DNA of 64,000 bases from Cyanidioschyzon merolae (taxonomy: Eukaryota). The notes beneath the pieces are model-generated. The model made no database searches. It had not been told where the DNA came from and saw only the letters and a program-made list of their open reading frames with translations. The translations under genes were made by a program, and so were the position numbers. Shown here piece after piece: positions 5,883 through 61,285 of this stretch (positions are counted from its first letter, which is position 1; the number at the start of each line of letters is the position of its first letter). Where the stretch lies: NCBI GenBank assembly GCA_000091205.1, contig AP006496.2; one strand, given 5' to 3'.

Positions 5883-6529
5883 TGTAAGATAATTCGGAGC
5901 AGGCGTGAAGTGGCCCTGGTCGAGCCTGATACTCCTTCAGGTGCGTGCCTCGAAGAACGGAGTTTATATTAGAACTTGCGGATCGGTGCGAAGAGTCGGT
6001 TGCAAGAGCGTACACGACTCGAGCGCCACAAACGAGCGCGGCGCACCCGAGTGCCTGCACCTGCACTACCGCGACCCGCGCCAGCGAAGTTTTTATGCTG
6101 TAGAATTATTGAGGAGAATCGTAGAAGTAAGCGTGCCTGCACCCGTGATGTTTTTGATGCGATAGGCTCGTTGAAGAGAGTCTGAGGCGTGCAGCTGCCC
6201 TCCGCTCACAAGAATCGAGCGGTATTCCACGAGCGCCTCTGTCGATGGCGCGCGATGTTGCCGCCCATGCGGGCACATCAACGACCTCAGGCTCGATTTG
6301 GCGTGCGCGCGCGCTCGTAGCGCCAGCGGGGCGTCTATGCGCAATGCTATCGACTGAAGGAACACTTTGATGGTCTACCACTTGTACTGGAATACTTCTC
6401 CGACTCTATCTATAGATATATGCGGTGCTTGATGTTCTATGGAGTGTTGAGGGCACCATGAACGTGCCTGGATCCGGACGGAATACTATGCAATGCATAT
6501 TGGGCACTGATTTTTCCAACGAGAGTTTG

Positions 6530-8268
6530 GAGCGTTGCAGCGCAGCGTCTGCATCAGTAAGAGTCGCTTCCCTGGCAAGCTCGCTCGACGTAAAGCCGGT
6601 GGACGATCTGGAAGCACGAGATATTGCCTGAGGTTGATCGAGGGGTTCAAGTCTCGATGCAGTATGGACGGGTATGTGTGTGTACTTGCTGCTGGCGTCA
6701 CGACGCAGCGAGCCTCACGCCTTTGATTGCCGCTGCATCTCATGGTCGAGCGGCTTACCGTACGCCATCTCGTGCGTCTGTCTCTGTTTCGCTCTCTGAT
6801 TCTCTACCGGATTCGGCACGCGCCCGTGCTCATGACACGTGTATGCCGTCCTGAACACATCGGCGGGCATCGTGCAGCGCGCATTTCTGTATTTACTTCT
6901 GTATTTCGGCATGCTCATTGCATGAGCAGGCGTCCAGCATTTCTGCGTTATAGCGCGCCCTGCTCCATGGGTTACCTATCAAAGAAAACTGAGCAGCTTC
7001 ATCTGCTTCGCACTGAGGCCTTCGGCTCCGTCCCCGCGCTCTAGACGCACAGCGAAGGCCATGGCGCTATCTGACCTGGGAATCACGCGCACAGCGAAGC
7101 CTTTCCCCGCATCTAGCTTGAACAGTTGGAAATGCGTCGCGCTGCCCGAAAGGATACTTTTCGGCACCTGCGCTGTCGAGGTCCCGTTCAAGGACGTGGT
7201 GCGTCGACCTTTCAAGGTATTCTGCGGGCTGTAGGTGCGAGTCTCTGACCCGACGCTCAGGCCGTGTTGCGGGTTTTGTTCCGGGCTTCATTCACGCTGT
7301 CCCTCGGGGAGGGTTCAGCCATAAAAAGCGCAGAGCAATGTGGACAGCTGGCAGCCCTGCGCCCGCAACACGTACGCATTGTTGGTGAACGAGCTGCGTC
7401 ACAGCGCGCGAAACTGAGAGAGTCCTCATCGAGTGCGAAGCAACGCGACGCCATTTGGCGACCTGTATCTCGCTTTACTGAATATTCTCCCTGCTAATGT
7501 GTCTTTGCAGGGAGGCGTCGAGAGTGGTTCCGGCGTCATGCGCCCGATCCGTGAGCTTTTCCTTCCTGTCCCTGCACATCCTCTTCGTCTGAGGGATCCT
7601 CCTGCTCGTGGCGGAGCGGCCTCTTCGCCTTTGCGTCCGCTCGGCTGCGCGCGCCTTGAGCGCTTTCGAGTAAGGGGGCGCATCGTACCCAACGATCAAC
7701 CCAGAAGAATGCGTGATAGAGACGCAACGGAGCGCTTCGACGGAGTATGAGGTGCTGAACGAAGCCGTCTGCTTGGCGATCACTAGGTGGCTCGGCAATG
7801 AAGTCGCCTCTGGGCCTGATGGTGTCGGAATGCTCGCTTATTTGTGCTTTGGGATCCGTCGTTCGCGCCTCGTTGGGTACCCTTGTGCGGGTCCACCATC
7901 GCTCCCGAACAAGTCCCTTTGCGGCGTTATACGGAAATCGAGCACCTCATGTGAGAATCATTGGCGCCGCAGTGCGAAATCGATAAATTGTGTCGTTCAG
8001 CACGAAACAGTCTCCCATACAAGTGCATTCCCTTCTGTATCCGTCTGTGTCTCTTCGGAGCAGCTCGTACCGACGGTACGGCATCATCACAGTCGATGAC
8101 TGCTTCCGTGGAATTCCGTATCGAAGAAATGGAGTGGCATAAATTGACGAGGAGACACACTGATCAACACAGGGTTTGGTACCGTCCGCATTGAGTGCGA
8201 ATCGTTCATCATGCAGAATACGAGTGGGTAGCTGCATCCAGCCGCTGACCCTGGACTGGCTGACTTGT
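6530..8268 (-). mobile_element. Copy 1 of a ~2-kb dispersed repeat family carrying a decayed TnpB/Fanzor-like ORF (sense on the minus strand), truncated at both ends relative to copies 2 and 3
   Basis: Near-identical DNA at 39945-41925 and 59294-61285. Minus-strand ORF pieces contain KLDAGKGFAVRVI (RuvC-I-like, compare [16 protein letters not shown]), AVRLERGDGAEGLSAKQMKLLSF (compare [25 protein letters not shown]), VFRTAYTCHEHG (compare B EFRTSYTNHELG) and ILHRDLNPSINLRQYLVL (compare B FVNHDLNAAINIKRCAVL). The reading frame is broken many times. Confidence 0.75.
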
Positions 8269-9718
8269 ACAAATCATGTCGCCTTTGGTACACCAGCACT
8301 GACACCATAGAAACTTTACGCCAACTCTCTCCAATCGATAGGCTCCATTCTCTTTGTCTTAGGCATGCGACAACCATGGATAAAGACGAAACCTGACCTG
8401 CTGGTACAGTTGGTACAAAATTCGCTGCTCGGATTATATCGATGATGCGCTGTGTGCCGAGGACAAGGTGCGCGGACATTACCGGCTGCCGCTGTGGTCA
8501 CTGCAAGCACCCGCTCATAGCTATGCACCCGCTCGAGTCAAGCATGTGTGGTTCACGCGTCATCGCTTAGGAACGAATATTTCATCGTCGCTGCATTATA
8601 TCGCAGGAGATCGATATCACGATGCAACTGACCGTATAGATCGTAGACGAATTGACTCCAGGATATATTCTTTACTGAATAGTTCAAGGAGGATTGCGTC
8701 CCTTTTTCAGATCAGTCATGCCATAGGACGCAGATGATTGAGGAACACTGTAAGGAACCAGTATATGCGATCTGCGTCAAAAACCGATATTTTTAAAGAC
8801 TGCTTGCCGTTTATGCTAGAAAACTTCCGATTGATCAAACTACGGAAAGCAAAACTGACGATCAGAGCCATCCCGGGCGTCACTGTTTCTCAACAGATCA
8901 ATTGTATGGTCCTGGAAACAGTAGGATAGTCTCAAGAGTCATAATTCACGCACGGCCATCTTCCATGGAGATCGCAATGTCGACGTTCCTCGAACGTCGC
9001 GATCTTCATCAAGCAGAGTGACGTCAGTCTGTTTTTCAGTTGATGCGACATCCTCCGGACGAAAAGGTTGGAGTATACATGAGTATTCGTGGAGCTGGGA
9101 ACCCGTTGTATGTACGATCGAACTCGAAGAGAACGAGGACGTCATCCATTCTTGCTGCAATCGATCCATTTGGCTGTCTCAGATTCGCTTGTGGAGAAGG
9201 CTGAAAGAAAAGCACCTGCTTCGTCTACTACTTGGAAACTTTTCTCCTGACATCTGGTGACGCCATCCTATTGGACAGTGTCGAATTTCGCCATCCGCTT
9301 TCCGTTCGAGCATTTGCCGATTCTATCGGGGAACGAGCTGTCTTTCATTCCTCAGTGTGCTGCGTGGTTCATCCCCATCAGAGGAATGTTTTTGATCATG
9401 AAACGCAGTGATCGCTCCACTGGGTGAATCGCTGAAGCGTTCAGCACACGCTGGCACAACGGAGCACATAAAATCTTCCTTCTGCATGTGCGTCTGTCTC
9501 TGGGAAGGTCAGCACCTAAGGGCATAAACAAGGGCGTTCGTTTGAATACATTAAAAAATCCAGGGAAAGTTATGGACTCGGAAGTCCGAGATGTTTGAGG
9601 CCCGGTGTTGCCAGCTGCCGGATAAAAAACGGAAAGAATCCTTTTCTCGACAAACATCAAGCGAACAAGAGTATGTGACGAAGAAGAAAAAGAAAAGAGG
9701 GGACACAGCACAGCAAAG

Positions 9719-10006
9719 ATGTTTGGCCGACGGGATAGTGACGATCCTGTTATGTCACAGAGGACACGAGTTCGAGGAATCCTTGCTTTGGTGAGTTCCA
9801 CCAGCGGCAATAAACGCATGAAGTTCGTGAACCGAGAATTCAACGTCACCATCAGGATCAGACGATCTGCGGTGCTAAACACGGGGACCGAGGACCCCGG
9901 GCGATTTAACTTCATGGGGCAGCCTCTCAGACTCGACTTGTACCCAGATAATTCGAAATCGATAGCAGACGGCCGGTCCAGGAAAAGCTGGGAGACGTCG
10001 GTGTAA
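9719..10006 (+). pseudogene. C-terminal fragment of a TnpB/Fanzor-like nuclease gene, divergent from copies A and B
   Basis: RTRVRGILALVSSTSGNKRMKFVNREFNVTIRIRRSAVL...FMGQPLRLDLY aligns with B RRAKVRGLLALMSTTNDSKKRMEFVNHDLNAAINIKRCAVL...FIGQPLKVKLY. The stop codon TAA sits inside a GTAAGT hexamer. There is no upstream N-terminal part. Confidence 0.6.
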
Positions 10007-10027: not shown

Positions 10028-10650
10028 AGGAACAGAAACTAACCATTCACTATCAACTCGATAACAATTTCTTCCCTGCTCTACCGTACACGTTTACAAG
10101 GGGAAAAGATTTCCGTATTTTCGAAAGCTTTCCTTCTAAGCGGAAGGTCCCGCGAGCCGGACGAGTCTGATGGGCTCGTGCTCCGTGCACCTCTGAAGTG
10201 CCCGGTGCTATAGTGAGGCCTGAACAGCTCCTCCGCAACGCACTATATTCTGGGACCAGGAGCAGGTAGGATGCATCCAGGTGTCGCCATAATCACAGAG
10301 GTCTCCGGGAATATCGCTTCGCGCTGTCGCAGGAAGTAGGCCTGTCTGCGCAGTTTGCAGACCCCCAGAATGCTGACAAGTCTGAATTCCGTATCGGATG
10401 AACCAAGCATCAAACCGACGCCCTGAGTGGTATGGCAAAGCCGTTCTGTCTCCGTGCAGCATCTGCTTCAACGGCATACGCGCGATTGCGGATGCAGCAA
10501 GACAGGTACCCGGCGCACGATCGAGCGTACATAACGACCGGTACATCCGAGAGGAACTATGGATCAGGGAACTTGCAAGTAGGTTGCAGCATGAAGGATG
10601 CTTTCTCGGTAACCAATATCCATCCCACAATCTGCGATCCATGGTCCAAG
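10028..10650 (+). repeat. Conserved ~620-nt non-coding unit, copy 1 of 3. It corresponds to the left end and leader of Fanzor-like element B and is a candidate structured RNA or regulatory module.
   Basis: Collinear DNA similarity to 21828-22450 and 54858-55460 with indels. Shared blocks are gaacaga[ag]a[ct][ct]aac, aa[ag]gg[ag]aaa...tt[ct]ccg, cccgcgagcc[ag]gacgagt, gcagttaa[ag]ctgc[ag]tctgggcgtcg, ggctcccagaatg and tgcatc[cg]gcatcagcgg. Reading frames are not conserved across copies (the 22-kb copy has stops), and a stem such as gcgagcc...ggctcgc is retained with changes. Confidence 0.6.
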
Positions 10651-18541: not shown

Positions 18542-19286
18542 TGTCACTTCTTTGCACAGTCACATAAAGGCCGCCAATGGTGCCCCTTCATGTTTATGAT
18601 GTAGAAGGCTTGCTGTGCGCCATGCAGCGCAGGAGGCTGCTTCGTTCCGCTGCGCACTCTGGTGCGTGCTCGCTACCGAACGCTTGCATGCATCTCCATA
18701 GCGGGGCGCAGTCGCACGTCTCCACAGAGCCATTCCGGACATGATCGTCTTGAATGGTTTGTGTGTTGGAATACAACCCGTGGTGAAGCGTGATGCCGGC
18801 GAGGGTGACGCTTACCACGAAAACACCTCCTGCGACCAGTCGTCTTGCGGGCAGCTCCAGCCAGCGCTTTCCTGACAGTAACTGTCTTCCGAGCAAACTC
18901 GCGTACGTCATATAATTCTGCAGACACGTCCCCGTTTCACGGAAGGGAAAATCTCGAGGAGCAAAGCGGAGCCGCCCGCACGCCCACACACACACATCTA
19001 TGATAGGGACGAGAACGGATCACCCAGCACTTGTGTGACGAACAGTGCTCCGTGTCGCGTTCTGTTTCCGTGCACGAAAGGCTTGCTTTCAGCGCTACTT
19101 GTCGTAATTAAGGACCGGCCAGACCGTTGGAGCAGTGTCCGGTGCAGTAGACCGCGTACCTGAAAGCCACAAAAGGCGCACAGGGCAGAGCGCCGTACTG
19201 CGTCCAGCTCGCGAAACCGGTCGCTTCTTTCGGGCGATGGGCGCGGTCGCCTGCTGCTGGTCCGTGGTATCGCCGACACAAGGAGC

Positions 19287-21815
19287 GCCTTAAAAGTCGA
19301 ACGTCGCCGGCGGCCGTGTACAGTAGTGGCGAGAAACCCGCCCTAGATAAAACGTCTTCAGCTGACGTGCAGACGCCTCCCAGCTTTTTTGGACAGGCTA
19401 CCTACTACTGCCTCCAACTTTTTCTCATACAGCTCCACTTTGAATGATTGCGCAACAAAGTTCTCTCGTGTCAACTCTGGAGGTCTTCTTTCCACCACGG
19501 CACATCTCCTTATATTGATAGCGGCGTTAAAGTCACGATTCACAAACTCCATACGTTTCTTGCCATCTTTGTTTGTACACAGTAATGCGAGTAGTCCACG
19601 AGCTTTCGCCCTGCTTTCCATTTGCTCCTCCGTCAACGCTCCGTACTTTTTTACATCCTCAGGGCTTCACTGGTACTTTTCCATCTCCACTCTCTGAAGC
19701 GTACAACCCACTTCATGGTGTGTATACGACGTCCGGAACTCATCTACAGGTATCGTAACGAGATGCCTTTCACACACCTTGTGCGTTCTTGTAGCTGGAG
19801 CTAGCCTAGTCCCTTTTTCCCACGCCTACCGCCCTGCCCAATACGCTTCTACTAGCCTCTGACTGTCGCTCTCCTTCAAGGCGCTCAACTCATTGAAAAA
19901 ACTCGTGAACGCACGCTGCCTCCCACCGTGTAGATTCATACACAACCGAGCCCACCGGGGCTTTGTATACTCCTCCTACAGCGCCTCGCAATGAGCAACA
20001 CGAACTTCCATAAACTCCCGGAAAGCGTGAAAGTCCGCTCCCCGGCCCGTCACCTGGCTGATCGCTTCCAGGTGCTCTTTCAATCCTGCGTTCCACGCCC
20101 CACTTTTCTTCCTTTATTCATTACACTGAATTCTCGGTAATATCTCGTTCTTGAAAGCTTTAAAACACGCATGTGTTTTTGACGTAGGTTGCCGTCGATG
20201 CCATCATCCCCGCAATTGCGTGTTGTGATGGTCATGATATTCGTGTTCCCAGGGCCCGCGCCAACGACAAAGTGGTTCTCATGCACCTCCTGCTTCGTGG
20301 GGCTAGCCTCTTTGTTTTCTTCACGCTTTGCCAGCGACGGCAACGAAGACAGAACTGGACGATCCGCCTTCAAGCGCCGATAATGTACACGCATGGCTAT
20401 CGCATCACTTTCGATCATCCCAGTAAAGTCCTTTTTCTTGCTCGTTCTGAGACGTTTGGAATCGAAGATATTCTTCTTCCAGTACGTCTCCTGGTTTTCA
20501 CCGGTGAACTCCTTGTTGCTTACATCGAACACTGGACAGATCTCCGTAATGATGCCGTAAGGGATTTCGGAGTCGATACTCACAAAATGTGACTTGATGT
20601 TGCACAACGGAACGACGTTGAAGCGCTTCTCCAGAAGCGCAGCTTTCCGTTTCTCCGTCACTGCATTTGCTTCAACACCCTGCTCCATATCGGTCTTGCA
20701 TTTCAGTTGTCGGTTCAGGAATATGGTATAGCGCAAGATGAGGCGATCGTATCTTTCCGAATCTTTTTTCAACTCTGATATCTTTTCTGCTGGACTCGCC
20801 AGCCCCAAGACCACACGATGCTCTTTAATAGCTGCACGGATTACAGAATCCTCATTTGCTCTCCTGCGTGATGTCTTCTCGTGAACAAATTCGATCTACT
20901 GTTCATTCTTACTATCGTTTGTGATGCCATCGATGATGGTCCATATCCCTTTGCGAGAGGGGCCCGGGTAGCGCGTACAGACGGCGCGTATCATGAAACG
21001 TTCCAGGTTCATGGTCAAATAGTTCTTCAGGTTCGTGAGGTGCTTCATAACCCCGACGGTGTAAATACGCGAGTCACCCCTGTCTCGAGTACCGTTGAAG
21101 CGGAATTCGGCGTAATTTTCGTGGAGGGCATGCACCCGCTCATTTCTCCTCGACGTTTCCCCTGTACCAAGCATCAGGTGACGAATAAAGGTTTTGCCGA
21201 AAAATTCTTCCAGAACCTCGACTGTTTTGATGCCCGTTGCGTCGTCGCGCATCTCCTTCACCAAATGCATTATACCTGCAGAAGCCATCATAACACTCAT
21301 GGAGTCTGACTCGATACGGTTTCTGATGGCCTCTCGCAGCTTTCGCCGGGACGGATCCTTGATATGTGCGAGAAGACAGGTTTTCACCACCATCTGGTCG
21401 TACTGTCGTGTTTCGTTCAGCTTCTGACCTCGGGCCTCCCTCTTTTGCTCCATCGTCTTCTCATGTTCCTTTTAGCTCCGCCATGTTTTTCCTTAGTCTC
21501 CGGCAGTCGACGACACCAGATGTCCAGGATCCTCCAGTTTCTTTTCCACAACTTTTTCATTATTTTTGAAGAAGAAGAAGGCTCTTTCAACGCTTCTGAT
21601 ATGAATCGCTAAAATTGATTTGAATACACTAACTTGAGGTTTGAAACACAATTGCATTAAACAACTTTAATTTGTTACGACTTTAACGCAAATACAACTT
21701 GTACGGTAGAACAATAAGAAAACGGATTTTCACAATTTCGCGTTTCCTTTCAACGGCGACACGTGCGTCTTGTCTCGTACGACCTGATCTCCCCGGCGCG
21801 CTAACCGACCGCAGC
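19287..21815 (-). mobile_element. TnpB/Fanzor-like element copy A (pseudogene). Its 5' leader is truncated where element B begins, and it has an in-frame TAG, an internal deletion and frameshifts.
   Basis: ORF pieces 20896-21453, 20080-20814 and 19358-19636 on the minus strand are collinear with copy B at about 55-65% amino-acid identity ([17 protein letters not shown]; KRMEFVNRDFNAAINIRRCAVVERRPP...KVELYEKKLEAVVGS). The manual translation around 19985 reads VRVAHCEAL*EEYTKPR where B has VRVAHWDSLWEEYTKPR. The 3' tail after the stop codon matches B's tail (tcgccactactgtac...cttttaagg). Confidence 0.75.
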
Positions 21816-21827
21816 ATACAGAGCAAA

Positions 21828-22450
21828 GAACAGAGACTAACCATTAACTAGCAACGATATACCAATTTATCTTCCCTGCACGATAAACGATAAAAAGGAA
21901 ACACGATTCCCGTTTTGTCGAAAGTTGAATTTCTCGACGGAAAAACCCGCGAGCCAGACGAGTACCCCAGGCACGTGCTTCGTGCTCGCCTCCCAGTGGC
22001 GGGTGCTGCACTGAAATCTGAGCAATTCGTCTGCAGCACTGTTTATTCTGGTACTAGCGGCAGTTAAACTGCATCTGGGCGTCGATCCGGTCGCGGTGGA
22101 GTCCTAGTATAGAGCTTCACGCTATCGCAGGCAGTGTGTCTGTCTGCGGAGCTTGCTGGCTCCCAGAATGATCCTATACTCCAACTCTGTGTCAGGTGGA
22201 GCATTCCTCGATCCGACGCCCTCAGTAGTACGGCAACGCTGCTCTGTATCTGTGATGCATCGGCATCAGCGGATTAGACGCTAAGGCGGGTGCATCAACG
22301 CATGCACCCGGCGAATGACAGGAAGCACGAGACGAGTAGTACATCTGAAAGGAAGTATACGTAATGGAATCTGGAGTTAGAATGCAGCATGATGGACGCT
22401 TTCGCTGAATCCGATACCCATTTATAGCACAATCTGGGATCCATTGTCAA
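21828..22450 (+). repeat. Conserved ~620-nt non-coding unit, copy 2 of 3; this copy is the left end of Fanzor-like element B
   Basis: See 10028-10650. Copy A (minus strand) is collinear with B only from about 22215 onward and lacks 22340-22450. Confidence 0.6.
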
Positions 22451-22802
22451 TATAAGTGTTTTTCCATCGGAAAAATGAAGCGTGTAGCTCTAACGTACAA
22501 ATTGTAACGATGTTCAAGTCGTAGAAAAATACATTGTTTGTCCTCAATCGTGTTTCAACCTTCACTCTAGTGTATTCAAGTGCTTTTTCGTGCGTAATAG
22601 CTGTCCCATCCAAAGTGGTTTCGGTTTTTATATTGAAAAAGGAAAGTTACGGAAGTGGAAGTGTAGGATCCTGGGCGTCAATGTCGCCGGCAGCCCGAAA
22701 AAACGAAGAACAGTGCCAAGTGCAAAGGAACAGGATAAGAAGAAGAAGTAAAAGTGGAAGGCCCTACGTCAAAGGCTACACAAAAGACGACGGTACGACG
22801 AG

Positions 22803-24838
22803 ATGGCGGTGAAAGCCTGTCTTCTTCAACATACCAAGGATCCGTACAGGGAAAACGTTCGAGAGGCAATATGGAACCGTGTCGAGCCGAACTCCAGCGG
22901 TGTTCGTGATGCTTCTCAAGGAATGTTGCATTTCCTAAGAAAATGGTATCATGACGTTACGGACATCAAAACAGTCGATATTCTGGGTGAATTTTTCAAC
23001 AAAACCTTTATTCATCACTTTATGCTTGGCACCGGGGAAACGTCTAGGTGAAATGAGCGAGTTCATGCCCTCCACAAAATTTACGCCGAGTTCCGCTTCG
23101 ACGGTACTCGATACAGGGGGGATTGGGATATTTACATCTACGGGGCGATGAAGTACCTCACCAGTCTAAAGAACCATTTAACAATGAACCTCAAAAGCTT
23201 CATGATACGCTCCATCTTTGCACTCTACCCCGGTCTCACTCGTCAGGGGATATGGGCGATTGTCAATGGCAACACGAACGATCGCAAGCATGAAGATGAG
23301 ATTGAATTCATCGACGAGAAGAAATCACTCAGGAGCATGAATGAGGATTCCGTCATCCGAGCGGCTATACAAGAGCATCGTACGGTACTGGGGTTGGCGA
23401 ACCGAGCAGCAAAGATATCAGAGTTGAAAAAAGATAACGAAAGATACTATCGCCTCGTCCTGCGTTACTTTGTGTTTCTGGGCCGTGAGCTCGAACGCAA
23501 GGCAGAGATGAAGCTGAGTGAGGAAAAAATGAAGAGCGGGGGAAACGAAAGGCTGCGCTTCTGGGTAAGCGCTTCAACGTCGTTCCGTTGTCCAACATCA
23601 AGTCACGTTTTGTGACTATCGATTCCAGAATCCTTTACGGCATCATGAAAGACTTCAGCCCCGAGTTTAATGTCAGCAGGAAGGAGAGTACCGGTGAAAA
23701 CCGGGAGACGTACTGGAAGAATATGTTTGATTTCACACGTCTGAAAGTGGGCAAACAAAAGGTATTCACAGGGGTGATCGAAACCGATGGAGTAGCCATG
23801 TGTATTCACTATCGGCGCTTGAAGGCGGATCGTCCAGTTCCGTCTTCGATAGTGTCCGTGACGAAGCATGAAGATGAGAAGGAGGCGGATTGTGCCACAC
23901 AGAAAGTGCAGGATAACAACTTTGTCGTTGGCGCGGACCCTGGGATTACGAATATCGTAACCATCGCTGCTCCCAAGCGTGCGGAAGATGGTAACGACGG
24001 TAACACACGTCAGAAAGGCATGCGTCTGTTGAGGTTCTCGAGAGCGAGATACCACCGAGGATCCGGCGTAATGAATGCAAGGAAGAAAATCATTACATGG
24101 AATTCAGGAATGAAAGAGCACCTGGAAGCTTTGAGCGAGGTGACGAGCCGAGGAGCGGACTTTAACGCTTTTCGGGAGATTATGGAAGTTCGCGTTGCTC
24201 ATTGGGATTCGCTGTGGGAGGAGTATACAAAGCCTCGACGGGCTCGTCTGCTTATGAACCTGTATTGTGGGAAGCGGCTTGCATTCGCCAACTTTTTCAG
24301 TCAGTTGAGCGCCTTGAAGGAGGATGAAAGTCAGAGGCTCGTAGTAGCATACCGAGCAGGGCGCTGGGCGTCGAAAAAAGGAACTACGCCAACTCCAACG
24401 ACAAGAACGTACAAGGAGTGCGCACGGCGCTTCGCTACGATACCTGTAGATGAGTTCCGAACATCCTATACAAACCATGAACTGGGGTGCACGCCTCAGA
24501 CGGTCGAGATGGAGAAGTGTCAGCGAAGCCCTGAGGATATACAAAAGTACGGACCGCTGACGGAAGAGCATATGGGAAGGAGGGCGAAAGTTCGAGGGCT
24601 ACTTGCACTAATGAGTACAACCAATGATAGTAAGAAACGTATGGAGTTTGTGAATCATGACTTAAATGCCGCGATCAATATCAAGAGATGTGCGGTGCTG
24701 GAGAAGAGACCTCCAAACTGGACAAGAATGAACTTTATTGGACAACCTCTCAAAGTCAAACTATATGAGAAGAAGTTGGAAGCAGTAGTAGGCGGCCGGT
24801 CCAAGAAAACTGCGAGGCGTCTGTACGTAAGTTGGTGA
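22803..24838 (+). pseudogene. TnpB/Fanzor-like RuvC nuclease ORF of element B. It is nearly intact, with one in-frame TGA (23049-23051) and one 14-nt tandem duplication (23562-23575) that shifts the frame.
   Basis: N-terminus MAVKACLLQHTKDPYRENVREAIWNRVEP..., RuvC-I-like [31 protein letters not shown], and RuvC-III-like KRMEFVNHDLNAAINIKRCAVLEKRPP. Where A has TSRRNERVH, B has TSR*NERVH. Deleting tgggtaagcgcttc restores the frame (ERLRF|NVVPL, matching A EKRFNVVPL). Confidence 0.75.
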
Positions 24839-24905
24839 TGTCTAGTCTGGGGCGCGGCGATCGCCACTACTGTACCACTGGCGACAGCGTTTTTCTTTTG
24901 AAAGG
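24839..24905 (+). other. Right-end tail of element B: conserved hairpin-like segment followed by a T-run. It is a candidate terminal omega-RNA scaffold and/or terminator.
   Basis: gtaagttggtgatgtctagtctggggcgcggcgatcgccactactgtaccactggcgacagcgtttttcttttgaaagg. The matching tail of copy A runs from tctagggcgggtttctcgccactactgtacacggccgccggcgacg to ttcgacttttaagg. The two sequences diverge immediately after this point. Confidence 0.45.
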
Positions 24906-24944
24906 CGTTGGTTTCCAGGGGCGCGCGCTACAGCAACGCCTCTG

Positions 24945-25517
24945 GTGCGCCTGCTGGGTATGACGGCAGACGCAGCTTGGCCAGCGCTCGTGGTTAGCTT
25001 TCTCCTGGGGCTTTTCGCAGGGCGCCGCAGCAAGCACCAACGAACTGGTGCCAGCGGGCTGGACACGAGTGCATCGGGCGCGCCTGCTGGGTCAGTGATC
25101 GACAGCACGCCCGCTGATGCACCGTTCGCCTCGCTGGTGCCGCTCGCGTCGGCGCCGTCAGGGACCACCGCTGACGTTAAACTGATGCTCATCGTACGTC
25201 GTGACCTGAAGATGAGCCCTGGCAAAATTGCCGCTCAATGCGGGCATGCCTCTGTCGGTGCTTTTAGAGGGTGTACGGATCGCGCGCTGCTGGCTGCTTG
25301 GGATCGAAACGGCCAGCCGAAAATTGCGCTGCGCTGCAGCTCACTGAAAGAGCTGTTGGCGATCGAACGGGCGGCCCGGCAGCTTCGTATACCGACTTTT
25401 GCCGTACGCGACGCGGGGAGAACGCAGGTCGTGGCGGGCACGATTACGGTGCTGGCTGTTGGGCCTGCCGAGAGTGCCAAACTCCAGAGAATCACCGGCC
25501 ATTTGAAGCTACTTTAA
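24945..25517 (+). CDS. PTH2: Peptidyl-tRNA hydrolase 2 (PTH2/PTRH2 family) with an N-terminal membrane anchor
   Basis: KLMLIVRRDLKMSPGKIAAQCGHASVGAF...GQPKIALRCSS...RDAGRTQVVAGTITVLAVGP...ITGHLKLL matches PTH2 [22 protein letters not shown]...KIVLK...DAGRTQIAPGSxTVLAIGP...VTGHLKLL. Confidence 0.8.
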   Translation: MRLLGMTADAAWPALVVSFLLGLFAGRRSKHQRTGASGLDTSASGAPAGSVIDSTPADAPFASLVPLASAPSGTTADVKLMLIVRRDLKMSPGKIAAQCGHASVGAFRGCTDRALLAAWDRNGQPKIALRCSSLKELLAIERAARQLRIPTFAVRDAGRTQVVAGTITVLAVGPAESAKLQRITGHLKLL

Positions 25518-28620: not shown

Positions 28621-29089
28621 TCGCTGAGCGCATGCCGCAAGCGTCCCTTGTGGAGCTTGTACCGTTGGCACGAATGCATCTCAATGACAGAACGGCTTTG
28701 CCGTACTAATGAGGACGCCGCCTCGGTGCTTGGTTTATCCAACATGGAATCGGGATTCACTATCATTACGAGAGCCTGCAAGCTGCGCAGACAGACCTAC
28801 TGCCTGCAACAGCGCGAAGAGATTTACCAGGATAATCCTGCGAACACGGGCGACTCCTAGACGCAGCGCACCAGCTCCTAGTCCCGAACTGAACTGCGTT
28901 GCGGGCGAGCTGCTCAAGTCTCGCCATTGCACCCACCACTTGGTGGAGCATGAAGTTTCAGCGCGGCGGAGTCGTCTGGCTCGCGGGACGCCCCGACTAA
29001 AAGGTGAACTTTCGACCATGCGAAACAATTTTGCCAGCTTCAACACGTACCGTCGAGGCAAATATTCGTATATCGTTGCTAGGTAGCGT

Positions 29090-30040
29090 TCGTTTCCGTG
29101 ATTATTTTCTACAGCGCAGTCGATACGCACACCATCATATTTGGGAGATGACATTGACGGCAGCCTGCGCCACAATGAGATGCGTCTTTTGAAGTTCTCG
29201 AGAGCTGCATATTGCCGACAGTCGGAGATAATGAAGCCCAAGAAATACTGCACCCTGCAACGCTGAACAGAAGGAGTACCTGGACGCGATGAGCAAAGTC
29301 GCGTCGCGCGGAGCGGACTTTCGAGCTTTTCTCGAATTCACGGAAACTCAAGCTGCTCATGCCGAGGAGCTGTGGAAAGAGAGTATCCAAAGCCCCGGTG
29401 GGCTCGTCAGCGCATGAACCTTCGCAGAGGGAAGAAGCGGGTACGCGGCATGTTCATGAATCAGTTGAGCGCCCTCAAGCAGGACAAGAGTCAAAGGCTC
29501 GTAATTGGATACGCAGCAGGGCGCCGGGTGTCCAAAAAGCTAGCGTACCAGCTCCATCGACAAGAGCGCGCAAGGAGTGCACACACCGTTTCATCGCAAT
29601 ACCGACAGATGAGTTCTGAACGTCCTACGTGCACCAGGGGCTGTGGTATACGCTTCTGGAGGTCGAGATGGAAAAGTGCCAGCGGAGGGCTGAGCATATA
29701 CAAAAGTGCGGAGACCTGACGGTGCAGGAAATGGCACGAAGGGCGCGAGTTCGAGTACTCCTCGCTCTAGTGGGTTCAAGCAGCGGCAACAAACACATGC
29801 AGATCGTGAATCGAGACTTTAACGCCGCTTTCAATATCAGGTGATGTGCGGTACTGGAGAAGAGATTCGAGGGGTTGACACGATCCAATTTTGTGCCACA
29901 AACTCTCCGAGTCCAACTGTAAAACGAGAACTTGAAACCAATAACAGGCGGCCGGTCGATAGAGACGGAGCGGCGTCAGCACGTCGGTACATAGGTACCC
30001 GCGCGATCATCGTACCGTATTCAAACGCGATCCCCAGAAG
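29090..30040 (+). pseudogene. 3' fragment of a TnpB/Fanzor-like element of the A/B subfamily, with multiple frameshifts and stops
   Basis: MRCVF*SSRE aligns with [63 protein letters not shown] and KHMQIVNRDFNAAFNIR align with B ALSEVTSRGADFNAFREI, SQLSALKEDESQRLVVAYRAGR, RFATIPVDEF and KRMEFVNHDLNAAINIK. The tail ggcggccggtc...cgcgcgatcatcgtaccg is similar to B's right end. Confidence 0.6.
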
Positions 30041-39944: not shown

Positions 39945-41925
39945 TGTGGCGTTCCAGCCTCGCTCGACAGCTGACCAGTACCATACCAGTGTCTTGGCGC
40001 AGGCGAGGATCCGAATCTTCCCCCTGTTTCCTAACGTCTTTATTGCATCCGAACTCCACAGCGTTGCAGCGCAGCGTCTGCATCAGTAAGAGTCGATTCC
40101 CTGGCAAGCTCGCTCGACGTAAAGCCGGTGGACGATCTGGAAGCACGAGATATTGCCTGAGGTTGATCGAGGGGTTCAAGTCTCGATGCAGTATGGACGG
40201 GTATGTGTGTGTACTTGCTGCTGGCGTCACGACGCAGCGAGCCTCACGCCTTTGATTGCCGCTGCATCTCATGGTCGAGCGGCTTACCGTACGCCATCTC
40301 GTGCGTCTGTCTCTGTTTCGCTCTCTGATTCTCTACCGGATTCGACACGCGCCCGTGCTCATGACACGTGTATGTCGTCCTGAACACATCGGCGGGCATC
40401 GTGCAGCGCGCATTTCTGTATTTACTTCTGTATTTCGGCATGCTCATTGCATGAGCAGGCGTCCAGCATTTCTGCGTTATAGCGCGCCCTGCTCCATGGG
40501 TTACCTATCAAAGAAAACTGAGCAGCTTCATCTGCTTCGCATTGAGGCCTTCGGCTCCGTCCCCGCGCTCTAGACGCACAGCGAAGGCCATGGCGCTATC
40601 TGACCTGGGAATCACGCGCACAGCGAAGCCTTTCCCCGCATCTAGCTTGAACAGTTGGAAATGCGTCGCGCTGCCCGAAAGGATACTTTTCGGCACCTGC
40701 GCTGTCGAGGTCCCGATCAAGGACGTGGTGCGTCGACCTTTCAAGGTATTCTGCGGACTGTGGGTGCGAGTCTCTGACCCGAAGATCAGGCCGTGTTGCG
40801 GGTTTTGTACCGGGCTTCATTCACGCTGTCCCTCGGGGCGGGTTCAGCCGTAAAAAGCGCAGAGCAATGTGGACAGCTGGCAGCCCTGCGCCCGCAACAC
40901 GTACGCATTGTTGGTGAACGAGCTGCGTCACAGCGCGCGAAACTGAGAGAGTCCTCATCGAGTGCGAAGCAACGCGACGCCAATTGGCGACCTGTATCTC
41001 GCTTTACTGAATATTCTCCCTGCTGACGTGTCTTAGCAGGGAGGCGTCGAGAGTGGTTCCGGCGTCATGCGCCCGATCCGTGAGCTTTTCCTTCCTGTCC
41101 CTGTACATCCTCTTCGTCTGAGGGATCCTCCTGCTCGTGGCGGAGCGGCCTCTTCGCCTTTGCGTCCGCTCGGCTGCGCGCGCCTTGAGCGCTTTCGAGT
41201 AAGGGGGCGCATCGTACCCAACGATCAACCCAGAAGAATGCGTGATAGAGACGCAACGGAGCGCTTCGACGGAGTATGAGGTGCTGAACGAAGCCGTCTG
41301 CTGGGCGATCACTAGGTGGCTCTGCAATGAAGTTGCCTCTGGGCCTGATGGTGTCGGAATGCTCGCTTATCTGTGCTTTGGGATCCGTCGTTCGCGCCTC
41401 GTTGGGTACCCTTGTGCGGGTCCACCATCGCTCCCGAACAAGTCCCTTTGTGGCGTAATCCGGAAACCGAGCACCTCATGTGAGAATCATTGGCGCCGCA
41501 GTGCGAAATCGATAAATTGTGTCGTTCAGCACGAAACAGTCTCCCATACAAGTGCATTCCCTTCTGTATCCGTCTGTGTCTCTTTGGTGCCGCTCGTACC
41601 GACGGTACGGCATCATCACAGTCGATGACTGCTTCCGTGGAATTCCGTATCGAAGAAATGGAGTGGCGTAAATTGACGAGGAGACACACTGATCAACACA
41701 GGGTTTGGTACCGTCCGCATTGAGTGCGAATCGTTCATCATGCAGAATACGAGTGGGTAGCTTCATCCAGCCGCTGACCCTGGACTGACTGACTTGTCCA
41801 AGTAAGGCTGTTTTCTCGTGAACTACCGGTGACAACACCTTGTGTTTCCTGTTCCTGTCTCCATTCTGCAGGATACCCTCCGTTTTCTTGAATGCGTGTG
41901 AGAGATGTAGAGAAAAAGAACGTGC
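39945..41925 (-). mobile_element. Copy 2 of the ~2-kb Fanzor-relic repeat family (full-length relative to copy 1)
   Basis: The predicted ORF fragments are identical or near-identical to copy 3, and about 97% identical to copy 1. Confidence 0.8.
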
Positions 41926-49489: not shown

Positions 49490-52400
49490 TCACGAACCGA
49501 GTTGCAGCGGGCCATGCACTGGACTCGGAATTAATGGAGGTGGTGGAGGTGGTGGAGGTGGTGGAGGCGGAACGATCGCCCCTGGGGCCTTGGTCGCCAA
49601 GTCGGTGGTACCCGCATGAAACGTCGCTATCTGAGGTGCCATACCATCACCCGTTTTCCACCACAGGAGATGCGCGTTTTCTTTCTCGGCCTCGTCCAAG
49701 TCAGCGCCAACGCGCTGTCGCCAGGTACAAGCAGTATTTTCATTCAGAGCGCGAGTCTCAGCGAGTGATTGATCCCACAACTCTACGAACTGCCATAGAT
49801 AACGAAACAGATCATCACGAAGACTCGCTCGTCGAGTCGCGACTTCCGGGCCGCCCACAAAACCCTGCTCCGTCATAGGTAAAAGCAGGAGCGTATCTTC
49901 AACTGCTTCGTTCATTTCCCGCAGGCGCTGCGCAAGCTGTTGTAACTTCGCTCGCGCCGGTTCCAGCCAGCGACGAAAGCACCTTGAGAGCGCCCGCCCC
50001 GTCGGCTCATTTGCGGAGAGCTCGCACTCGGAGGTGAGCTCCTGTAGATCATGCTCTAGCTCGCTGAAACCGGTGGATATGTGATCGAGTTCAATTCGAG
50101 ACGCAGTTTGGACACTGGCGAGCTCAGTTCCTAGCTCCAAATCTGCAGCCTGATGCTCACTGCTTTTCCGGAGCACTGCGCCCGCATAGGATATCACTGA
50201 ACGAGAGCGAGCGAGCTGCGGAACCGAGTCGATGGTAAAGCCAGCGGCATTCGCCCGCGCAGAACCGGCATTGAGAACATTTCCAATCACGAGAAGCACT
50301 TCCAAAACAAGACGCAAGCGCCTGGACTGGCGAATCTCCAGACACGCTCGGGTCACGCTGGTCACCGCAGCGTCCAGTTCCTGGAAGGCTTCCGTGAAGC
50401 GCCGCATGGTGCTCCATGCCGCGGCCTTTGCAGCGATACGCGGTACCCGCTGCAGCATCGTGAGCATAAACCGTTCGGGATACAGCAGCCGTTCCAGAGC
50501 AATGTCCTTTCGGGTCTGGAAGGCCTCCAGCAGGCGCGCCTGCTCTGGTGCTGATGGAAGCATCGGTGCTAGAATTTCGAAAAAGTCTGGATCGAGGGCG
50601 TCGAGATCACCGTGTACAAACGCATCGGCTACAGCCTCGCTAGAAACGTTTCGGAATCTGCCCAGCAAAATATCGAGGTTGCGGACGTGCTTCGCGTCCA
50701 GCACTGCGAAGCTCTCCGGTGCGTCAGCTGGTGCCGTTGACCGGCCAGCAGCAGCGCCGAAACCGGATGCCACCTCTTGGCTGAAGAGCTTCGCCATTTC
50801 GTCCATATCCGGGATCCAGCGCAGTGGACGCAGATCTGACCAGATGGAGCCCGGTACTTGGTGCAATGGAACACAATTCCAGTGCAAGCGTCTCCAGACA
50901 CGCGTTCGGGGCCCATTGCCGCCATTGGCACCTGCTGGTGTCGCCAGGTCGAGAGCCGGTGACGGCAGCGGTGGCAGCGGCGCACGGGAGACCGACGGAA
51001 AACGGGGTCCCGGCCGACGTACCGGGGATCTGGCGTCTGATCTCGTTGCAGCAGCAACTGCAGCAGGCTGCTGTGCCTTACCCGAGGAGATGGACAGCCC
51101 GACGGGTCTCTGCTCGAACCTCGAGATCCTTTCCGAGATGGTGTCTGGGGGCGGATTTCCCGTATCCCTGATCACGTCTACATTCGTTGCAAAGTGCAGC
51201 ACCGTGAGACTCTGGTCCGGAGCCTCCAGCTGGGGCGCAATGGCCGATGTCTCCACCAGGGACTGCTCCACAGCGACGTTCGTGCAGGCGGCTCGTGAAA
51301 TGGATACTTGTCCACCATGGTCCACAACAGAGAGATCACCATTCGGTGCGAGTATGACAACGGCCTCTGACGAATGATCGGCAGCGAATGCGTCAGCGGC
51401 CTGGTGATCGCGCGCTGTTGCTACCGCAAGCGGATCCAGCATCGAAGTCTGGACCTGGACGGAACGCGTGCGCTTCGGCTGCACCGTCCGATGGCGTCCA
51501 TGGCCGATGCCGAAGCAACCGATTGGCAAACAGGCCGCGGATAAGTACGTGGACGTTAGTTCAGGAGCGAGCCTTGTACAGCCCATAAGAGCGAGTGCCC
51601 TGAACGCTCGAAATACCAGCAACACGCTATCCCGCTGGTATGCGTTCGGGGTGCGCACGCACAGGTGCACGCCCGCCGGCGCACGCATCGGAGCGGAGGC
51701 GGCACGCATCGGCCGTTCGTGAATCTCCAGCTGCAACGTGTCCTCGGCACGCATCGGCCGTTCGTGAATCTCCAGCTGCAACGTGTCCTCGGCACGCATG
51801 TCTATATGAAGGGATTCGCTCCACGGGCGGCATTTGGGGTAGAGGCCGATGATGCCGCGCTGCGATAGCGTCAGCGTGGTGCGCATCCGCCGGTTGGGTT
51901 TCCCCGGCGGTCTCTGGATCCAGGAGCGAGGCAGGCGCCAGGTGCCACGCTGGAGCACCGCTTCGACATCGACGCGCAGTTCCTCGTGAATGGTAATGAC
52001 GGATGCCGTACGAACCGTAGCACCAGTGTCCAAAACGGCTGCAATGATACAGCCGACGTCGTCTGCAGTGACTGGGTAGCGTGCTTGCGGAGGTCCGTAC
52101 TCGAGGTCGGCGCGTTCCACGATGGTTTCGGTGTCGCTGTACGGAAGGGTCCGTCGCCACTGCTGCACGACACCGTCCCAGTACAGGTACGCGGCTGTTT
52201 CGGTGCGTCCACGGAGGACGTTCGGTGGCGAGACAGGGTCGGTGGCCGCGAACGCTCCAGCTCGCTGCGAAGCGACGGACGCAGCGCTCGAGCCGACCGC
52301 TGCCTTCATCGATGAAGCCAGACTGCTTGAATCCATCTGCAACAGGACCAACTCTTCTCTCAGCGCTGCAACTCGTTGCATTCGATGGAGAAGTCGCAGC

Positions 52401-54857: not shown

Positions 54858-55460
54858 AGAACAGAGATCAACGAGTGATTAGCAACTCGAGAACAGCTTC
54901 TTCCCGGCTTCACGGTGAGCGTTGAAAGGGAAAAAAGTTTTCCGTAATTTCGAAAGTGTATCGTGTTGGTGGAATTTGGCGCGAACCGGATGAGTCCGTC
55001 AGGCCAGAGCTCGCTGTGCCTCTAAGGTGCCGGGCCAGTAGCGAGTTCTGAGCAGCTCGTCCGCAACGCAGTTTATTCTGCGACTAGGGGCAGTTAAGCT
55101 GCGTCTGGGCGTCGCCCATGTTGCAATTATCTCCTAGCATATCGCTTCGCTCTGTCGCAGGCGGCAGGTCTGCTTACCCATTTTTCAGGCTCCCAGAATG
55201 CTTACATAATCCGATTCCGTACCTGGTGAAGCGGCCCGCAATCCGATGCCCTCAGCAGTATGGCAAAGCGTTCTTGTCCCCGTGCTGCATCCGCATCAGC
55301 GGTTTAGGCGCAATCGCGGATGCAGCAAGACAGGCACTCGCAACACAATGGAACATTCAAAACGGCAAGTGCATCCAGGCAGAGGCAAGGGCCATGGAAC
55401 TTGGACGTAGAGTGCATCATGGTGGACGCTTTCCCGAATACCAGTTTCCAATCCGCAGGC
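54858..55460 (+). repeat. Conserved ~600-nt non-coding unit, copy 3 of 3 (solo; no adjacent nuclease ORF)
   Basis: See 10028-10650. It ends about 250 nt upstream of the eIF4E ATG on the same strand. Confidence 0.6.
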
Positions 55461-59293: not shown

Positions 59294-61285
59294 TGTGGCG
59301 TTCCAGCCTCGCTCGACAGCTGACCAGTACCATACCAGTGTCTTGGCGCAGGCGAGGATCCGAATCTTCCCCCTGTTTCCTAATGTCTTTATTGCATCCG
59401 AACTCCACAGCGTTGCAGCGCAGCGTCTGCATCAGTAAGAGTCGATTCCCTGGCAAGCTCGCTCGACGTAAAGCCGGTGGACGATCTGGAAGCACGAGAT
59501 ATTGCCTGAGGTTGATCGAGGGGTTCAAGTCTCGATGCAGTATGGACGGGTATGTGTGTGTACTTGCTGCTGGCGTCACGACGAAGCGAGCCTCACGCCT
59601 TTGATTGCCGCTGCATCTCATGGTCGAGCGGCTTACCGTACGCCATCTCGTGCGTCTGCCTCAGTTTCGCTCTCTGATTCTCTACCGGATTCGACACGCG
59701 CCCGTGCTCATGACACGTGTATGTCGTCCTGAACACATCGGCGGGCATCGTGCAGCGCGCATTTCTGTATTTACTTCTGTATTTCGGCATGCTCATTGCA
59801 TGAGCAGGCGTCCAGCATTTCTGCGTTATAGCGCGCCCTGCTCCATGGGTTACCTATCAAAGAAAACTGAGCAGCTTCATCTGCTTCGCATTGAGGCCTT
59901 CGGCTCCGTCCCCGCGCTCTAGACGCACAGCGAAGGCCATGGCGCTATCTGACCTGGGAATCACGCGCACAGCGAAGCCTTTCCCCGCATCTAGCTTGAA
60001 CAGTTGGAAATGCGTCGCGCTGCCCGAAAGGATACTTTTCGGCACCTGCGCTGTCGAGGTCCCGATCAAGGACGTGGTGCGTCGACCTTTCAAGGTATTC
60101 TGCGGACTGTGGGTGCGAGTCTCTGACCCGAAGATCAGGCCGTGTTGCGGGTTTTGTACCGGGCTTCATTCACGCTGTCCCTCGGGGCGGGTTCAGCCGT
60201 AAAAAGCGCAGAGCAATGTGGACAGCTGGCAGCCCTGCGCCCGCAACACGTACGCATTGTTGGTGAACGAGCTGCGTCACAGCGCGCGAAACTGAGAGAG
60301 TCCTCATCGAGTGCGAAGCAACGCGACGCCAATTGGCGACCTGTATCTCGCTTTACTGAATATTCTCCCTGCTGACGTGTCTTAGCAGGGAGGCGTCGAG
60401 AGTGGTTCCGGCGTCATGCGCCCGATCCGTGAGCTTTTCCTTCCTGTCCCTGTACATCCTCTTCGTCTGAGGGATCCTCCTGCTCGTGGCGGAGCGGCCT
60501 CTTCGCCTTTGCGTCCGCTCGGCTGCGCGCGCCTTGAGCGCTTTCGAGTAAGGGGGCGCATCGTACCCAACGATCAACCCAGAAGAATGCGTGATAGAGA
60601 CGCAACGGAGCGCTTCGACGGAGTATGAGGTGCTGAACGAAGCCGTCTGCTGGGCGATCACTAGGTGGCTCTGCAATGAAGTTGCCTCTGGGCCTGATGG
60701 TGTCGGAATGCTCGCTTATCTGTGCTTTGGGATCCGTCGTTCGCGCCTCGTTGGGTACCCTTGTGCGGGTCCACCATCGCTCCCGAACAAGTCCCTTTGT
60801 GGCGTAATCCGGAAACCGAGCACCTCATGTGAGAATCATTGGCGCCGCAGTGCGAAATCGATAAATTGTGTCGTTCAGCACGAAACAGTCTCCCATACAA
60901 GTGCATTCCCTTCTGTATCCGTCTGTGTCTCTTTGGTGCCGCTCGTACAGACGGTACGGCATCATCACAGTCGATGACTGCTTCCGTGGAATTCCGTATC
61001 GAAGAAATGGAGTGGCGTAAATTGACGAGGAGACACACTGATCAACACAGGGTTTGGTACCGTCCGCATTGAGTGCGAATCGTTCATCATGCAGAATACG
61101 AGTGGGTAGCTTCATCCAGCCGCTGACCCTGGACTGACTGACTTGTCCAAGTAAGGCTGTTTTCTCGTGAACTACCGGTGACAACACCTTGTGTTTCCTG
61201 TTCCTGTCTCCATTCTGCAGGATACCTTCCGTTTTCTTGAATGCGTGTGAGAGATAAAAACAAAACCGGACGTGCTGGTAAAGTT
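59294..61285 (-). mobile_element. Copy 3 of the ~2-kb Fanzor-relic repeat family
   Basis: Near-identical to 39945-41925 over the whole length, with different flanks on both sides. Confidence 0.8.

Follow-up and report, generated by a model that had tools for sequence, protein, structure and literature searches.

The closest described counterparts of the locus studied here are the guide RNAs of Fanzor1 (Fz1) proteins. The omega-RNA of SpuFz1 from Spizellomyces punctatus is 88-90 nt long and consists of a 75-nt scaffold followed by 14-15 variable bases of the flank, with the whole scaffold falling in the interval from the stop codon to the element's right end (Saito et al. 2023, PMC10432273). 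Solved structures of Fz1 complexes show a stem-loop 1 of 7 bp, and in SpuFz1 and PpFz1 only one more stem-loop stands before the guide (Xu et al. 2024, PMC11423790). The RNA that co-purifies with four further Fanzors comes from the 3' non-coding stretch bordering the right end (PMC10530073), and all tested Fanzors co-purify with RNA from the right-end region (PMC10530073, PMC10432273). A Fanzor1 family of Cyanidioschyzon merolae, CMe-1A, comprises ~150 copies, each ~80% identical to a ~3-kb consensus (Bao and Jurka 2013, PMC3627910). It is without inverted repeats, its target duplications were not determined, and its 5' 635 bp are common to TE-N2_CMe (PMC3627910). CMe-1A equals the 3.2-kb repeat of Nozaki et al. 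(2007, PMC1955436), who reported 253 copies of a transcribed 'novel interspersed repetitive element' that makes up 5% of the C. merolae genome and bears a truncated ORF similar to WSV486 of white spot syndrome virus. A 3' tail, hairpins or any RNA of CMe-1A are not described in PMC3627910 or PMC1955436, and C. merolae is absent from the supplements of PMC10432273.

The present study concerns a 64,000-nt stretch of DNA (the window) that carries two copies of this family, A on the minus strand and B on the plus strand. The window is nuclear DNA of C. merolae 10D, chromosome 14 by its gene names, and the neighbours of B's tail match 10D proteins residue for residue: PTH2 (BAM81176.1), SppA (BAM81177.1) and CMN041C (BAM81178.1). 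The original prediction for this locus held that the tail shared by A and B after their stop codons is the 3' scaffold of an omega-RNA whose guide would be read from the 5' region of PTH2. Our results lead to the conclusion that the segment 24839-24921 is the right end of a degraded CMe-1A Fanzor1 element and that, by analogy with the systems above, this segment probably encoded an omega-RNA scaffold in the ancestor.

Coordinates of copies A and B, their 3' tails and the neighbouring gene in the window
Feature	Position	Strand	Basis
Copy B, Fanzor module of CMe-1A element (AT-rich leader, degraded ORF, tail)	22479-24921	+	clustered alignment ends
Degraded Fanzor1 coding region of B	22782-24838	+	ORF list, tblastn frame change with family proteins
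Degraded Fanzor1 coding region of A	19358-21456	-	several stops, one frameshift
3' tail of B, right-end non-coding segment, candidate omega-RNA scaffold relic	24839-24921	+	nhmmer, conservation profile
3' tail of A, decayed terminal hairpin of other variant	19286-19353	-	nhmmer E 4e-19
Candidate stem-loop 1, UGGGGCG / CGCC-A-CUA, 7 bp with one bulge, 7-nt loop	24848-24869	+	52-copy pairing
Most conserved tail block CGCCACTACTGTAC	24862-24875	+	conservation profile; exact 15-mer common to A and B
Terminal stem-loop 2, CAGCGUUUUUC-UUUU-GAAAGGCGUUG, 11 bp, three U.G pairs, T-run inside	24885-24910	+	folding
Subgroup-specific terminal bases GTTTCCAGGGG, element's last bases or shared target flank	24911-24921	+	locus alignment
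Would-be guide CGCGCGCTACAGCAAC if scaffold ends at 24921	24922-24937	+	inference from SpuFz1 guide length
PTH2, ATG at 24960	24960-25517		exact match to BAM81176.1

A and B are degraded members of CMe-1A. They align with each other at 76.6% identity over 2.4 kb (B, plus strand, 22489-24875; A, minus strand, 21710-19318), and family copies are ~75-80% alike when compared with one another. The assignment is set by the published description of the ~3-kb, ~80%-identical element: the window is C. merolae 10D, A and B agree with the family in their degree of identity, no terminal inverted repeats were seen, and the 5' module recurs separately in the window and in the related loci.

Relatives of B are found by the hundred in hot-spring metagenomes, with 1,436 at E <= 0.001 in a 50% representative library, many of them 600-700 aa long. 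A profile built from 47 diverse relatives together with B matched the solved structures of PpFz1 from Parasitella (9CF0, E 2.6e-19), SpuFz1 from Spizellomyces (8GKH, E 2.8e-11) and GtFz1 from Guillardia (9CER, E 1e-5). This broader profile was needed, as a search of the PDB with a profile of B's close copies alone gave no match; the 416-aa open stretch of B gave nothing usable against Pfam and NCBIfam. Residues D117, E289 and D358 of the open stretch are invariant across the 47 relatives and constitute the RuvC D-E-D triad, within the motifs GADPG (GxDPG), DEFRT and N(R/H)DLNAAINI (NRDxNAAxNI). For the TNB or zinc-ribbon domain (PF07282), B has no Pfam match, distant full-length relatives have sub-threshold matches in the right place (E 0.002-0.09), and the cysteine pairs of the ribbon are incomplete in B's family. 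On these profile matches and motifs, the coding region of the A/B family is a Fanzor1 relative. Just upstream of RuvC-I, a tandem unit of ~25 aa (e.g. VQDNVLVVDAMKHEEKKEASLETQK) varies in number among P0002, P0003, P0017, L031 and L012, and in this region B has an exact direct repeat of 16 nt (23286-23301 and 23864-23879).

Both copies are pseudogenes. B is interrupted by an in-frame TGA at 23049-23051 and by a frameshift near 23528-23558, leaving a last open stretch at 23588-24838, and A is in worse condition; the tail in the window is therefore a relic. No intact full-length ORF was found among 80 related metagenome loci or in any copy in the window, and the longest stop-to-stop frame in the 80 loci, 623 aa, is inflated by internal repeats and falls short of the family's full length. 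One related locus, L039, shares 89.6% identity with the window over 21500-23600 but only ~81% in the final 300 nt of B, which suggests recombination or gene conversion between copies.

The 3' ends of the 80 related metagenome loci were fetched and aligned to B, and a tail profile was built from 52 non-redundant copies. Within the window this profile matched only B at 24841-24909 (E 1.5e-17) and A at 19353-19286 on the minus strand (E 4e-19), so that the common tail of A and B, as first noticed, is real. Gapless complementarity between the two copies extends to 24875 in B and 19318 in A; up to this point they carry the same tail, and beyond it they carry different variants of the terminal hairpin. 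In the related loci, one tail lay directly 3' of the ORF in 78 of 80, and a search for solo tails ('ghost' copies) in ~600 kb of these loci yielded a single additional match. The tail thus belongs to the element as a constant component and does not occur as scattered solo copies. A third match to TCGCCACTACTGTAC in the window, at 52154, was set aside as a chance match.

The divergence of A and B immediately after the tail had been taken as the exact right end of the element. This proved roughly correct for the family at large, as alignments with B stop at 24909 or 24910 in 34 of ~80 loci, but B's own subgroup shares a further segment, 24911-24921. The bases GTTTCCAGGGG are common to B and its orthologous contigs, to L009/L024, to L006/L003 and to L033, after which the flanks differ; L047 has a close variant. 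In other subgroups GWTGGTGYG or TGYTGTYGCTG takes their place. The left ends of the alignments cluster at 22479-22487 and the right ends at 24909/24910, or at 24921 in B's subgroup, and three orthologous contigs continue into PTH2. From the locus alignment we put the end of B's element at 24921, unless the GTTTCCAGGGG bases are shared target. Beyond 24909 or 24921 the flanks of independent copies differ, so that the conserved candidate scaffold is followed by variable sequence that could serve as guide.

Majority-base conservation follows the same boundary: it is 0.78-0.87 over 24838-24877, 0.60 over 24878-24887, 0.72-0.74 over 24888-24907 and 0.41 after 24908. Third codon positions are conserved at ~0.82, and the tail is no higher than that. 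In the alignment, B 24848-24850 takes the place of the family stop codon, which is TAG in most copies. The first ~10 bases of the tail as delimited here are thus former coding sequence, and the non-coding tail of the family is ~59-71 nt long. Synonymous-site conservation at the 3' end of the ORF was not raised, which suggests that the scaffold extends little, if at all, into the ORF.

The element ends in a strong hairpin. In B, stem-loop 2 folds as sense RNA at -13.5 kcal/mol (z -5.67), a value equalled by 0 of 200 dinucleotide shuffles, whereas the antisense strand folds at only -2.7 kcal/mol (z -0.85) because three of the pairs are U.G. The T-run near the right end noticed in the original prediction is in fact the 5' arm and loop of this hairpin. 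The hairpin noticed at the time is also present (TCGCCA 24861-24866 with TGGCGA 24879-24884); stem-loop 2 is stronger, and the earlier hairpin competes with pairing of the same CGCC to the upstream GGGCG. A terminal hairpin of -8 kcal/mol or lower occurs in 39 of the 52 copies, and in 48 of the 52 the sense strand gives the more stable fold, with a mean advantage of 4.05 kcal/mol over the antisense strand; as the copies are related, this count overstates the independent support. In A the terminal hairpin reaches only -4.5 kcal/mol.

When the copies were aligned by their 3' arms and own folds, two hairpin variants could be compared. The first, AACGUUUUUC-UUUU-GAAAGACGUU, is found in 19 copies including B (TTTTTC-TTTT-GAAAG form), and the second, GGCGUCGUUCGA-CUU-UCGAACGGCGUU, in 17 copies (GTTCGAC-TTT-CGAAC form), with A as a decayed form of it. 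Both retain a 10-12 bp stem with different sequence. Between the variants, one position shows U-A (13 copies) or G-C (15 copies), another is U.G, U-A, C-G or A-U, and three further positions alternate A-U or C-G with G.U. Within the variants pairing is kept in 95% and 89% of cells, and covariation was not above shuffles.

Candidate stem-loop 1 has the family form UAGGGCG paired with CGCC-A-CUA. Its 5' arm covers the position of the family stop codon, and its loop varies between subfamilies. Across the 52 copies 86% of cells are paired, and four pairs show a double change, a number reached by 16 of 500 shuffles; covariation thus lends weak support to this predicted stem. A test of covariation between A and B, originally proposed as a check, has little power with two copies, and the signal is still weak with 52. 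RNAalifold predicted no pairs on a mixed alignment of all 52 tails because the two hairpin variants stand in different register there. Rfam 15 gave nothing at gathering score in the window, and at a permissive threshold gave chance-level miRNA matches around the tail (E 0.57 and 8.4). Pairing at long range, of the bases downstream of the hairpin with the segment that follows the conserved block, was considered and is not claimed (own partner -10.44 kcal/mol versus -9.84 for others' partners, permutation p 0.08).

Since the tail resembles published Fz1 omega-RNAs in position, size, strand and layout, we take it as the omega-RNA region of the family. In an active ancestor the scaffold would have been transcribed from the sense strand, with short stem-loop 1 over the stop codon, then the conserved single-stranded block CACUACUGUAC, then the strong terminal stem-loop at the element end. 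The RNA would have continued ~15-20 nt into flanking DNA as the guide, and with this guide the nuclease could cleave its own insertion site wherever that site stands empty. Transcription, protein binding and guide use of this kind are modelled on SpuFz1 and PpFz1; the repeat family itself is reported to be transcribed (PMC1955436).

The likeness to SpuFz1 and PpFz1 goes beyond the presence of a Fanzor1 protein. In CMe-1A too the region lies between stop codon and right end, measures ~60-75 nt, and has two predicted stem-loops followed by variable sequence derived from the flank; the first stem is of 7 bp in the solved complexes and of 7 bp in the CMe-1A candidate. A tail of ~65 nt had seemed short for a scaffold, an objection that falls away given the 75-nt scaffold of SpuFz1 (PMC10432273) and the finding that two stem-loops can suffice in Fz1 (PMC11423790). 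However, the CMe-1A tail is without RNA sequence similarity to these scaffolds. Furthermore, inverted repeats of 30 nt and numerous 'ghost' copies without an ORF are features of Spu-1; CMe-1A lacks such repeats, and hardly any solo tails of it were found. For SpuFz1, expression, binding and cleavage have been demonstrated; for CMe-1A they are predictions from sequence. The omega-RNA of TnpB (reRNA; IS200/IS605 elements such as ISDra2) is likewise encoded at the right end, takes its guide from the flank and directs homing to the empty site. In contrast to the TnpB scaffold, which overlaps the 3' end of the gene by ~100 nt or more, the ORF end of CMe-1A is without extra synonymous conservation, and CMe-1A differs from ISDra2-type elements in having no TnpA.

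The guide first proposed for B, 24906-24933, starts within the terminal hairpin and so could not stand as drawn. The family end at 24909/24910 and the extra bases that B shares with its subgroup (to 24921) would place the start of a guide at 24910, directly after stem-loop 2, or at 24922. In the latter case it would be CGCGCGCTACAGCAAC, 23-38 nt upstream of the PTH2 ATG. The Fanzor1 ORF and the conserved non-coding right end uphold the scaffold part of the original prediction; a working guide aimed at PTH2 is unlikely, since both copies are pseudogenes. A guide that matches its own insertion flank is the normal design of such systems, so that the overlap with the region upstream of PTH2 has no special meaning, and the closeness of the tail to PTH2 is an accident of B's landing site.

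No empty site was found upstream of PTH2: the element is present in all ten contigs with an identical PTH2, which points to an insertion that is old and fixed. Two loci with longer PTH2 calls, L092 and L093, were considered as empty-site candidates and rejected as assembly chimeras or artefacts joined inside the tail. In these loci (L092:1-330, L093:1-84) foreign or circularly repeated sequence is joined at the equivalents of 24858 and 24881, and L092 fuses an AT-rich ribosomal protein S27e gene to the tail; the junctions are most likely assembly chimeras at the repeat. Element B stops 38 nt before the PTH2 start codon (24922-24959), an arrangement kept in all strains sampled, and with such a gap the PTH2 promoter region must either lie within the element or be displaced by it.

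The tail, above all its terminal hairpin, could instead be a DNA-level end signal for the transposase of CMe-1A, an alternative that we consider unlikely while giving it some weight. Subterminal hairpins of IS200/IS605 elements and the Helitron 3' hairpin act as end signals at the DNA level. The two roles are compatible, since in TnpB elements one sequence has both. A hairpin that closes the element, with 7-12 subgroup-specific bases after it, suits a signal of this type, and T.G pairs are tolerated in single-stranded DNA too; yet no transposase gene lies in or beside the elements examined, and a sense transcript would explain the hairpin's strand bias at least equally well. CMe-1A resembles hairpin-dependent single-strand transposons in having no terminal inverted repeats or determined target duplications (PMC3627910), although the RepBase curators could not classify it (PMC3627910). 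The CTRR terminus of Helitrons is absent: a Helitron 3' end was considered for the hairpin followed by 7-12 nt and rejected, as the termini are ...CCAGGGG, ...GGTGCG and ...GCTGG/GCTGC, with no consistent CTRR. Helitrons have their subterminal hairpin ~10-12 nt ahead of the CTRR, begin with 5' TC and insert between A and T. The subgroup-specific bases themselves (GTTTCCAGGGG, GWTGGTGYG, TGYTGTYGCTG) might be the first guide or target bases and not part of the element, for which we see very little chance. If this were true, CMe-1A would have inserted beside matching targets chosen by the Fanzor RNP, or daughter copies would have carried the parent's guide in a read-through transcript.

Two other readings dispense with a guide RNA of any kind. 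The tail may have served as a plain 3' UTR, which we hold to be improbable, or it may have no function of its own, being ancestral sequence that decays neutrally with incidental hairpins, which appears more improbable still. Both are made less likely by the sharp boundary, the two stem-preserving variants and the strand bias. A 3' UTR would account for the place of the tail directly after the stop codon on the sense strand, for its strand-specific structure and for the reported transcription of the repeat (PMC1955436), but not for conservation that stops exactly at the element boundary; moreover, no known red-algal 3'-end signal was recognised, Rfam was without a match, and the right-end RNA that co-purifies with all tested Fanzors argues against it (PMC10530073, PMC10432273). 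Neutral decay agrees with a tail conservation equal to that of third codon positions, with covariation tests that were not significant and with the pseudogene state of all copies, yet 0 of 200 dinucleotide shuffles match the terminal hairpin, two sequence variants each keep a 10-12 bp stem, and the sense-strand bias is strong. The original prediction also raised a short RNA ending at the right end, with the T-run as a Pol III-type terminator. B does carry TTTTTCTTTT at 24890-24899, but this run is base-paired inside the hairpin, only 23 of the 52 copies have at least 4 T in their last 31 nt (at least 5 T in 18, and none in the second hairpin variant), and termination at the run would remove the guide; we regard this possibility as scarcely credible.

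Several other repeats lie in the window. A and B stand head to head around one stretch of ~0.8 kb (21621-22478), where matches to the 5' module of other copies run in opposite orientations for A (22031-21621) and B (21845-22474). Both elements thus appear to use this module, probably TE-N2_CMe, as their upstream part. It recurs at 10030-10646, 28674-29140 and 55241-55433. The 5' module, of ~0.6 kb, is common to other repeats and is found in two orientations and several variants. Fanzor-like fragments of the window other than A and B are also broken. Three distant ones lie on the minus strand at 6567-6975, 40090-40504 and 59439-59853, with 33-36% amino-acid identity to B, and two of them are nearly identical in DNA (6520-6640 and 40060-40160). 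The CMe-1A tail is absent from these three in the window, and their 3' ends are different. Additionally, degraded Fanzor1 fragments with ~40% amino-acid identity to B lie on the plus strand at 29120-29985 and 9680-9988. The former has a different 3' end with AAACGCGATCC, a motif also found at the junction of 5' module and Fanzor module in other copies, and the latter is cut off by a TE-N2-like insertion near 10000. The motif CGTTGWTGGTG, allowing at most 1 mismatch, has 10 sites in the window (3516, 7377, 40906 and 60255 among them) versus 2.55 expected, and 0 of 100 shuffles reach 10; three of them (CATTGTTGGTG) are close to the distant Fanzor-like fragments on the minus strand.

For the window itself the result is modest: neither copy is alive, and the tail is connected with PTH2 by position only. 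For the family, the tail appears to be the undescribed but expected omega-RNA region of a known element, preserved here as a relic, and is a reasonable if unproven candidate. C. merolae has one of the smallest genomes among free-living eukaryotes and lives at 45 degrees C and pH 1.5. The ~60-70-nt candidate scaffold with two stem-loops outside the ORF gives a concrete target to seek in C. merolae RNA-seq, and it could be paired with a reconstructed nuclease from this alga.
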